A stretch of DNA of 64,000 nt from a virus. Its lineage: Duplodnaviria; Caudoviricetes. A model generated the notes under the pieces. It worked only from the letters and a program-made list of their open reading frames with translations, was not told the origin of the DNA and searched no databases. Each line of letters starts with the position of its first letter. Positions within the stretch are counted from its first letter, which is position 1. Shown piece by piece: positions 10,969-18,984 of this stretch. A program made the translations under genes and the position numbers. The DNA lies in the IMG/VR virus record IMGVR_UViG_3300031836_000002, positions 60,210 to 124,209 of that record; one strand, 5' to 3'.

Positions 10969-11325
10969 CTAGTTGTTGGCGTACAGGTAGCCGAACCGGC
11001 GTGTGCGGTAAGCATCAACGGCCTCAGCGAACCCTGCGGGATCCGAGATGTTGAACCGAACGGCCAAACCACTGGGGTGGGTTTTGCTCTTCTGGGGAGC
11101 CTTCCATGAGGCTGCCTTGACCAGATCACCCGTGGCACGGACTACGAAGGCGTGAACCGAGAAGGAGAACTCTGACTCGCCCTGTTCCATGATCTTGTCG
11201 TAGACGTTTCCGGCCTGAACGATGAACTTGGGGGCCTTGATGTACTTCTCGTTGGCGTATCGAGCGTCATCGACTGACTGCAAGCTAGCGGCGAATCGAG
11301 CTGAAGCTTCTGTGGGGTTTGGCAT
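10969..11325 (-). CDS. conserved phage hypothetical protein
   Basis: SVHAFV..TGDLVKAASWKAP motif; promoter repeat plus RBS. Confidence 0.65.
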   Translation of the reverse strand: MPNPTEASARFAASLQSVDDARYANEKYIKAPKFIVQAGNVYDKIMEQGESEFSFSVHAFVVRATGDLVKAASWKAPQKSKTHPSGLAVRFNISDPAGFAEAVDAYRTRRFGYLYANN

Positions 11326-11401
11326 GGTGTCTCCTCTGTGACTGGTTGACCTTACACTTTGAGTCTAGCAACTTTAGATTGCAATTGCAACCTCTGAGCT
11401 A

Positions 11402-12940: not shown

Positions 12941-13012
12941 TAGGCCTTGAGGATTCTGCCACCTCGACCCTCCGCTTAAAAGGCGGATGCTCTGCTTCTG
13001 AGCTAAAGGCCC
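12941..13012 (-). tRNA. tRNA-Lys(TTT)
   Basis: TCCGC-CTTTTAA-GCGGA; atypical T-loop. Confidence 0.85.
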
Positions 13013-13433: not shown

Positions 13434-13496
13434 GTTAGCGCTCTGCCATTGAGCTACCGATCAAATCGGCTGGGACTCGAACCCAGATACTCTAAC
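13434..13496 (-). ncRNA. circularly permuted tRNA-like RNA (YrlA/Y-RNA-like topology)
   Basis: Order GTTAG, variable region, T arm, closed acceptor hairpin, TA, D arm, G, CTAAC. Confidence 0.75.
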
Positions 13497-13498
13497 CG

Positions 13499-13570
13499 TG
13501 CCCTTCGAGGGATTCGAACCCCCGGCCCTCTCATCCGTAGTGAGATGCTCTTCCGCTGAGCTAGAAAGGC
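13499..13570 (-). tRNA. tRNA-Arg(ACG)
   Basis: Cloverleaf; loop CTACGGA. Confidence 0.92.
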
Positions 13571-13652
13571 ATGTGATGTGCCCGCCAATTACCTCAGGCA
13601 CATCGTCGTCAATTTTTCCTCCACTCCGAGTAAAATTGAAAAACCCTCGTCG

Positions 13653-16131: not shown

Positions 16132-16220
16132 TTGGCGGAGAACTGAGGGCATGATCCCCTCACCTTGCGGTGCCAACCGATTAGCAATCGGTGCCGGTGC
16201 GCCTGCCCGGTAAGCTCTCC
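16132..16220 (-). tRNA. tRNA-Ser(GCT), atypical
   Basis: Loop TTGCTAA, long variable arm, G73-CCA; odd T-loop and bulged acceptor. Confidence 0.8.
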
Positions 16221-16221
16221 A

Positions 16222-16314
16222 TGGCGGATGAAGTAGGTCTCGAACCCACACGGGTATTACCCCCAACTGTTTTCAAGACAGCGCCCGATAGGCCGAAGCT
16301 CGGGTTATTCATCC
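16222..16314 (-). tRNA. tRNA-Ser(TGA)
   Basis: Loop CTTGAAA, long variable arm, G73-CCA. Confidence 0.88.
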
Positions 16315-16338
16315 TTGTGTTTTTCTCTGTGGAATTAG

Positions 16339-16366
16339 AAAAGCCCCAGACTGTTAGGTCTAGGGC
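16339..16366 (-). terminator. attenuator terminator 2
   Basis: GCCCTAGAC-CTAACA-GTCTGGGGC hairpin plus TTTTCT. Confidence 0.85.
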
Positions 16367-16396
16367 CGCATTAGCGAGATTCGAAAATCTGCTGAG

Positions 16397-16471
16397 TTAG
16401 GACAGCCCTGAAGTACTGCGATTGGCCACAATGGCCGATCCCATTACTTGCTTGGACTGGTTTTTTCTCAT
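16397..16471 (-). CDS. leader peptide 2 MRKNQSKQVMGSAIVANRSTSGLS (leaderless uORF)
   Basis: ATG 6 nt after TAGGGT; codons match downstream tRNAs; 3' end is complementary to the terminator stem. Confidence 0.8.
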   Translation of the reverse strand: MRKNQSKQVMGSAIVANRSTSGLS

Positions 16472-16477
16472 GCGTTG

Positions 16478-16507
16478 ACCCTACTACTACTTTCAATCGA
16501 GACGCAA
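16478..16507 (-). promoter_or_regulatory. sigmaA-type promoter of tRNA block 2
   Basis: TTGCGT-N18-TAGGGT. Confidence 0.7.
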
Positions 16508-16532
16508 GTGCATCCCGAAATTCTTCTTTGAT

Positions 16533-16668
16533 TGGACGATGCAGACGATTCGAACGCCACTTCCAACACTCTAGGCTGGCGAGCTGCCGCTGATGCTCTC
16601 CGGGATACGAACGCGCGCTCGACATCCTCCGGTGCTGTCTTTGGTCTACCTGATTACTCCATACATCG
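16533..16668 (-). ncRNA. expanded tRNA-like RNA with encoded CCA
   Basis: 7-bp acceptor CGATGTA/TGCATCG-T-CCA, D, anticodon-like and T arms, ~63-nt insert before the D arm. Confidence 0.7.
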
Positions 16669-16670
16669 AG

Positions 16671-16755
16671 TGCTCATCCCCGGACTTGAACCGGGACGAG
16701 GGTTACCCCTCACAGCCACCTCAAGGCTGCGTGTCTGCCATTTCACCAGACGAGC
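16671..16755 (-). tRNA. tRNA-Leu(GAG)
   Basis: Loop TTGAGGT; long variable arm. Confidence 0.92.
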
Positions 16756-16825
16756 TTATGCTGGGGTAGGTGGTCCATTCCTACCCCTGAGGTGGCATGC
16801 CCTTGGAGGAGCACTGCCACCTTTG

Positions 16826-18864: not shown

Positions 18865-18984
18865 TACTGAAGACGGGATTCGAACCCGCATGCTACGTGT
18901 CGCGTTCACGTGCTTGCCTCTACACCTTGACCTCCGCCTCTAAAAGGCGTAGCCACACACTGCCAGCTTTTAAGTCACTCCAGT
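18865..18984 (-). ncRNA. expanded tRNA-like RNA
   Basis: Acceptor ACTGGAG/CTTCAGT, canonical T arm, ~88-nt structured core. Confidence 0.6.

Follow-up and report, generated by a model that had tools for sequence, protein, structure and literature searches.

The tRNA array and the element at its Leu-Leu unit

The window analysed here, 64,000 nt in all, is the right-hand 64 kb of an IMG/VR phage record of 124,209 bp with direct terminal repeats. Among its replication genes are those for a DNA polymerase of family A, a recombinase like RecA/UvsX and a helicase like DnaB. Of the named phages, Microbacterium phage Magritte comes closest, as a distant relative with 46.5% amino-acid identity in the polymerase. 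Near-identical DNA (all sampled words of the window) was present in at least ten runs labelled as brine metagenomes, from several studies; permafrost metagenomes contain the phage as well. In four runs that share part of the DNA, the contigs left 16510-16671 uncovered. The minus strand carries an array of about 30 tRNA genes (Table 1), 28 of them called by ARAGORN and two added by Rfam, namely 12941-13012 and the class II gene 16226-16314.

Relatives were collected by aligning a neighbouring 385-aa protein, which gave 19 loci, L007 (IMG/VR) alone having a syntenic array; L027 (a Logan contig) and L035 were added by contig look-ups, and the contigs of the closest relatives (67-68% identity) stop short of the array. 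A DNA polymerase search of IMG/VR for relatives gave no match, and a leader-based pattern run on IMG/VR and metagenomes returned L007 again plus one chance match in a bacterial ABC transporter gene. Magritte, L007 and L027 share the gene order of this array, and L035 does so in part.

A 136-base tRNA-like element sits within the 355-nt gap from tRNA-Leu(GAG) to tRNA-Ser(UGA). The latter gene was called Ser(tga) in the scan described below, with a native acceptor partner at the normal distance, and Ser(tga/cga) is syntenic in L027, L007 and Magritte. Beyond the element, 26 nt past its CCA, lies a promoter-like sequence (TTGCGT, 18 nt, TAGGGT) that is conserved in L007, L027 and Magritte. Since this sequence opens the next unit, the element closes the upstream Leu-Leu unit.

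Table 1. Features of the array, of the element and of its surroundings, in the direction of the minus strand
Feature	Coordinates	Strand	Remarks
tRNA array	19401 to 12004	minus	about 30 genes
Second oversized tRNA-like element	18999-18862	minus	about 138 nt, between tRNA-Trp and a 156-aa ORF
tRNA-Leu(GAG)	16755-16670	minus	last canonical tRNA ahead of the element (ARAGORN, Rfam)
Whole element	16668-16533	minus	136 bases
5' acceptor strand CGATGTA	16668-16662	minus	begins 2 nt past the Leu(GAG) 3' end (16670)
T usable as U8	16661	minus	ARAGORN cloverleaf of the in-silico spliced form
Insert	16660-16600	minus	61 nt, with T16661 read as U8 and A16599 as position 9
D-loop-like AATCAGGTA in insert	16655-16647	minus	positions 14-21 from the element's 5' end
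Anticodon-arm-like hairpin GACAGC/ACCGGAG/GATGTC in insert	16639-16621	minus	7-nt loop
CCGG..CCGG hairpin, 3' half of insert	16632-16600	minus	z -0.20 against shuffled sequence
84-aa ORF	16625-16371	minus	ATG start
T-loop-like GCGTTCGTATC in insert	16614-16604	minus	direct repeat of the true T loop, 10/11 bases
A9 and D arm GAGC/ATCAGCGGCA/GCTC	16599-16581 (arm 16598-16581)	minus	4-bp stem, 10-nt loop
G26 and anticodon arm CCAGC/CTAGAGT/GTTGG	16580-16563 (arm 16579-16563)	minus	U33, anticodon AGA, G37
Variable loop AAGT and T arm GGCG/TTCGAAT/CGTC	16562-16544 (T arm 16558-16544)	minus	4-nt variable loop; read from sequence
3' acceptor strand TGCATCG	16543-16537	minus	7/7 pairs with CGATGTA (6 Watson-Crick, 1 G-U)
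U73 and encoded CCA	16536 and 16535-16533	minus	read from sequence
Promoter-like TTGCGT, 18 nt, TAGGGT	16507-16478	minus	conserved in three relatives
Leader ahead of tRNA-Ser	16507-16315	minus	four phages
Leaderless leader ORF	16471-16397	minus	MRKNQSKQVMGSAIVANRSTSGLS
tRNA-Ser(UGA)	16314-16226	minus	missed by ARAGORN; Rfam 34.5 bits as tRNA-Sec
116-aa ORF	16108-15758	minus	within the array
tRNA-SeC(tca), ARAGORN	13720-13652	minus	Rfam tRNA, 44 bits
YrlA-like Y RNA core	13487-13440 (region 13497-13380)	minus	T arm, closed acceptor hairpin, D arm
tRNA, Rfam only	13012-12941	minus	48.6 bits; missed by ARAGORN

A tRNA-derived body and its insert

A preliminary description of this DNA had proposed a tRNA with an extra domain between acceptor stem and D arm, and every one of the pairings it named was found, on the minus strand at 16668-16533. 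Both the arms and the conserved core bases of a functional tRNA are there: the D arm has A14, G18, G19 and A21 together with an A11:U24 pair, and the T arm keeps G53-C61, T54, T55, C56 and A58. What is missing is the contiguous connection from acceptor to D arm at positions 8-9. The T stem, moreover, is just four pairs long, a G-U among them, and at 49-65 U would face U; in place of a purine-pyrimidine Levitt pair, 15 and 48 carry U/U. The insertion is confirmed, at 61 nt instead of the roughly 63 nt first estimated.

The native element stays below detector threshold: ARAGORN made no call, and Rfam gave no match to it at gathering score, nor at E up to 10 when run on the 8.5-kb array, as had been anticipated for standard scanners. 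With the 61-nt insert cut out in silico, ARAGORN drew a cloverleaf, tRNA-Ser(AGA), at its default threshold. ARAGORN was also run on every TTCRA site of the two strands after a synthetic, perfectly pairing 5' acceptor strand had been attached. Across the 124-kb genome this prosthesis scan returned the known tRNAs and four other sites only, all within the array and on its strand: the element (6 constructs), tRNA-Ser(UGA), the YrlA-like element and a weak site at 18884. When the window was dinucleotide-shuffled 60 times (7.68 Mb), eight sites had any call and none had three or more. As the element was called in six constructs and no shuffled site in even three, its D-anticodon-T body is tRNA-derived, and on this point the preliminary description holds.

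The distal acceptor closure by itself is weak evidence for a tRNA origin: 7-mers able to pair turn up at 1.1e-3 per nt (2.1e-4 if no more than one G-U is allowed), so that 0.02-0.1 are expected per 100 nt. The location of CGATGTA does fit a tRNA 5' end, 2 nt after Leu(GAG) and followed by T. When folded as a whole, the element had a minimum free energy (MFE) of -39.6 kcal/mol (z +0.42), no stabler than shuffled sequence, and the fold constrained to the cloverleaf lay 3 kcal/mol above the MFE, so that the cloverleaf does not come out as the fold of lowest predicted energy.

All four relatives, L007, L027, Magritte and L035, lack the element at this place in the array. The spot between the transcription units is variable across them: from Leu(GAG) to the next promoter there are about 72-90 nt of unrelated sequence in L007 and L027, against 180 nt in this phage; in Magritte a 221-aa gene lies between Leu(GAG) and the Ser leader; and in L035 the array stops after Leu(GAG). 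Compared by BLAST with five whole records of related phages, the 136 nt gave chance matches of 14-26 nt only, and blastn of 16200-16800 against 50,697 phage records matched the tRNA-Ser part alone. Neither an exact 22-mer from T arm and acceptor nor a loop-anchored degenerate pattern matched in IMG/VR, and two exact patterns found nothing in GTDB genomes. The preliminary description had named a lack of conserved pairing as evidence against its tRNA. That lack counts weakly here, as the relatives and collections searched hold no homologue in which conservation could show, and with one sequence only it fits a young functional gene and a relic alike.

The insert itself contains three tRNA-like motifs, and these follow tRNA order (Table 1). 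The last of them, GCGTTCGTATC, recurs at a spacing of 57 nt as the true T-loop segment, the true one downstream. Insert and downstream body gave a collinear global alignment (p 0.01), and against 40 real tRNAs the insert's mean alignment score was above 199 of 200 shuffles (p 0.005). Ranked among tRNAs by similarity to the insert, the element's own downstream body came 52nd of 123. Since the insert is no nearer its own body than other tRNAs, the comparison supports generic tRNA-likeness, and self-duplication is at most a possible origin. No other copy of the insert was found in the genome, and no Rfam family matched it. The preliminary description had called the insert structured; the CCGG..CCGG hairpin is present, but it is no more stable than shuffled sequence, and purposeful structure is not borne out. 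As far as sequence comparison can tell, the insert is probably a decayed tRNA body and not a dedicated domain, and the motifs suggest a locus in which two tRNA bodies are fused inside one acceptor helix. For the downstream body the best-scoring tRNA was the initiator-type tRNA-Met of L007/L027, with 52 of 72 bases. The next tRNAs reach 50-51, barely below the best score, which singles out no parent.

Decoding, mimicry or remnant

One reading makes the element a decoding tRNA, Ser(AGA) or, after deamination, IGA, with its insert kept or removed. The ARAGORN call on the spliced form agrees with this, and Ser(GGA) of L007 is missing from the present array, where TCT and TCC have no dedicated phage tRNA. 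Nevertheless, we give decoding very little credence. SerRS requires a long variable arm (class II) and G73, and the element, a class I body, has neither; the preliminary description had itself cautioned that U73 and a short variable loop speak against SerRS charging, and both the U73 and the 4-nt loop were confirmed. G37 is atypical next to A36 for the reading of U-starting codons, and bacterial A34 is essentially confined to tRNA-Arg(ACG). If kept, the 61 nt at the core of the tRNA would presumably collide with the ribosome. As to its removal, a group I or II intron needs more than 61 nt, no Rfam intron family matched at E up to 10, the insertion lies at 8/9 and not in the anticodon loop, and no bacterial pathway is known to remove 61 nt from that position. 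The element is furthermore unconserved in the relatives, and a tRNA-Ser(UGA) is already adjacent, 220 nt downstream. Ser(AGA) had been put forward to account for the lone TCA codon of the leader. That explanation is unneeded, because tRNA-Ser(UGA), the ordinary reader of TCA, lies just past the leader. It is just as hard to credit that a small protein-coding gene happens to look like a tRNA. The 84-codon ATG ORF spans the tRNA-like body and ends just ahead of a terminator-like hairpin, but its GGAGG touches the ATG with zero spacing, it has no Pfam match, and against 1.84 billion representatives it gave one marginal match (E 1.8e-4; 33 residues aligned within a 1230-aa protein). The terminator goes with another ORF, the conserved leaderless one of 24 codons in a different frame, and the shuffle null rules out chance for the tRNA body. 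A third possibility, in our view quite improbable, is a 5'-truncated tRNA remnant running from the D arm to the CCA, in which case the CGATGTA match 125 nt upstream would be coincidental, and there would be neither a closed acceptor helix nor an insert, just three quarters of a tRNA beside spacer unrelated to it. The expected frequency of pairing-competent 7-mers allows for such a coincidence and the fold of the whole element is not favoured; against this, the partner stands where a tRNA 5' end belongs, followed by T and then by a D-loop-like motif at 14-21, the chance of pairing at that fixed position is about 1e-3, and the spacer is itself tRNA-like.

More deserving of attention, though still unlikely, is a tRNA mimic that functions without decoding. 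RNase P would release it as a stable, CCA-ended RNA of about 136 nt, with a role at the RNA level. It could, for example, act as a decoy for, or compete for, host factors that bind or cleave tRNA, or it could partner a Ro-type protein of the host, and the insert would be a tolerated or useful additional domain. Consistent with a mimic, the four stems of the outer cloverleaf are intact despite the decayed insert, as are the tertiary-contact bases U8, A14, G18, G19, A21, U33, G53, T54, T55, C56, A58 and C61; the 5' strand starts 2 nt past the previous tRNA and CCA is encoded. The array also holds a YrlA-like core (34 bits) whose position is kept in L007 and L027 and, at 18999-18862, another tRNA-like element of about the same size as the first, with a perfect 7-bp terminal helix and a fold z of -2.5. 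There are precedents in the tRNA-mimicking Y RNAs (PMC4201824) and the small RNAs of phage T4 (PMC3014915, PMC9697503). On the other side, no collection searched contains a homologue, hence no covariation is seen; shuffled sequences fold just as well; neither YrlA nor any other Rfam family hits the element at E up to 10; the phage lacks a Ro gene; and the second element is supported by one ARAGORN construct, which is chance level. We regard it as distinctly unlikely that the element is a working, CCA-ended mimic of about 136 nt in which an acceptor/T-arm minihelix frames an intact body and a degenerate body serving as a domain at 8/9, and we hold the same low expectation that such an RNA would act, after RNase P processing, as a decoy or partner beside the YrlA-like RNA and the second oversized element.

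We therefore favour, somewhat above even confidence, a rearranged tRNA remnant that is specific to this lineage and closes the Leu-Leu unit just ahead of the conserved promoter. A local rearrangement within the array would have left a remnant of tRNA genes in this lineage, with a single acceptor helix and its encoded CCA enclosing two tandem tRNA bodies. The upstream body, now the 61-nt insert, would have decayed until its D and T stems no longer paired, while the downstream body would still fold into D, anticodon and T arms. Such an arrangement may have arisen by duplication of the D-to-T segment within one tRNA gene, or by a deletion that fused two adjacent paralogous tRNA genes. The remnant is presumably transcribed as the tail of a Leu(UAG)-Leu(GAG) precursor; its 7-bp acceptor and T arm may still permit an RNase P cut before C1 and 3' trimming to CCA, and neither charging by SerRS nor decoding would be expected. 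The short T stem with its G-U and adjacent U-U, the U15/U48 combination, the lack of any Rfam hit and the cloverleaf's departure from the MFE fold are signs of decay or non-function. The remnant reading gains further because other degenerate tRNA-like elements occur in these arrays. Against it, if both bodies date from one duplication, the retention of all outer stems beside the heavy decay of the insert hints at selection on the outer fold.

Compared with known systems, the element resembles a canonical bacterial or phage tRNA (RF00005) in its 7-bp acceptor, its D arm with A14/G18/G19/A21, its 5-bp anticodon stem with U33, its TTCGAAT T loop, G53-C61 and encoded CCA, and its in-register place in the array; it differs in the 61 nt between U8 and A9, the 4-pair T stem, an AGA anticodon on a U73 class I body, being missed by ARAGORN and Rfam, and the lack of an orthologue in relatives. 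Pseudogenes and degenerate tRNA-like genes in phage tRNA clusters, such as the tRNA-Pseudo/tRNA-OTHER feature of Acinetobacter phage AbTZA1 and the Magritte genes at 13446-13626, are alike in lying in the array and on its strand, in keeping a good T arm and acceptor, in failing scanners and in being lineage-specific; here, however, the defect is an added tRNA-like segment and not a lost arm or point decay. Being tRNA-derived, structurally lesioned and unconserved, the element has the attributes of a tRNA pseudogene or rearranged remnant, and it is probably an unusual, non-functional member of this known kind.

Archaeal tRNAs with non-canonical introns share with it extra sequence outside the anticodon loop. 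To be spliced, such introns require a bulge-helix-bulge motif along with the archaeal splicing endonuclease, which is not expected here, the relatives of this phage infecting actinobacteria (nearest named: Microbacterium). RNAC and RNAD of phage T4, about 120-140 nt long with paired 5' and 3' ends, are expressed, whereas the present candidate is known from its sequence alone. These two RNAs (species 1 and 2) are small RNAs of unknown role from the T4 tRNA gene region (PMC3014915, PMC9697503). YrlA RNAs (RF02553) mimic tRNA without decoding; they measure about 110-150 nt, have T and D arms and occur in actinobacteria and in the phages of these (PMC4201824); that of M. smegmatis is cut by RNase P and has CCA added (Chen et al. 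2014, PMC4201824). A core of the same type is present in the element's array. YrlA differs from the element in its permuted order of T arm, closed acceptor hairpin and D arm and in its stem for Ro binding, the element having the normal order and free ends; 16533-16668 matched RF02553 at no E up to 10, nor was a Ro partner found.

Read as a remnant, the element is a small, clear case of turnover in a phage tRNA array, in which duplication or fusion at a transcription-unit boundary yields genes that elude standard scanners. It also advises caution in reading anticodons off rearranged elements, as Ser(AGA) would be spurious here. Were it functional, the tRNA fold would tolerate a 61-nt domain at its core junction, and this would be a new type of phage tRNA mimic. 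The surrounding array is of more interest than the element, with its conserved tRNA-Ser leader and terminator and its Y-RNA-like mimic, the phage itself lacking Ro.

Neighbouring elements of the array

A conserved leader precedes the tRNA-Ser genes in four phages: besides the window, it lies at 17100-17320 in L007, 16552-16768 in L027 and 11118-11335 in Magritte (L002, OR553905). It consists of a promoter-like TTGCNN, 18 nt and TAGGGT, then 6-7 nt and a leaderless ORF of 24-25 codons that is Ser-rich near its end and always closes with GGG CTG TCN stop. After this ORF come a small hairpin and a terminator hairpin, the stems of both covarying, a T run, an invariant TTCCACAG and the tRNA-Ser. 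The GGGCUG at the end of the ORF can pair with the 5' arm of the terminator. The layout may be that of a leader-peptide attenuator controlling the phage tRNA-Ser genes.

The YrlA-like core is located between tRNA-Arg(ACG) and tRNA-Arg(UCG), and its Rfam score is under the gathering score of 69. YrlA-like elements are found at the same array position in L007 and L027, with a second one in L007 near 20233. A search for Ro (TROVE, PF05731) gave no match in the 124-kb genome; Magritte (gp118) and L027 encode Ro.

Degenerate or unusual tRNAs recur within the phage group. In the second oversized element the terminal helix is ACTGAAG/CTTCAGT and the T arm GCGGG/TTCGAAT/CCCGT; an anticodon-like arm lacks U33, about 76 nt of branched structure take the place of the D arm, and the 80 nt upstream are conserved with L027. 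Magritte (OR553905) has two unannotated tRNA-like genes at 13446-13626, between tRNA-Cys and tRNA-Ala, with anticodons TCT and GAT; in both, the acceptor and T arms are good, an ordinary D arm is missing and there are long additional regions. The gene called by ARAGORN as tRNA-SeC(tca) has a 3-bp D stem, two G-G mismatches in its anticodon stem and, under relaxed settings, an 8-nt anticodon loop (CTCA). It is a possible degenerate tRNA, or possibly a stop or frameshift reader.

The 116-aa ORF within the array has weak tblastx similarity to the HNH endonuclease gp112 of Magritte. It has no Pfam match and is missing from L007 at that spot; it is possibly a mobile endonuclease gene inserted into the array. 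Finally, the motif (A/C)AAAGAAGAATTT occurs at about 20 sites genome-wide, almost only on the coding strand (e.g. 16531, 12199, 36496, 27652 and 59934, minus strand). Some copies are within ORFs, where they read KEEF, and others directly follow tRNAs or gene ends, including the CCA of the 136-base element.
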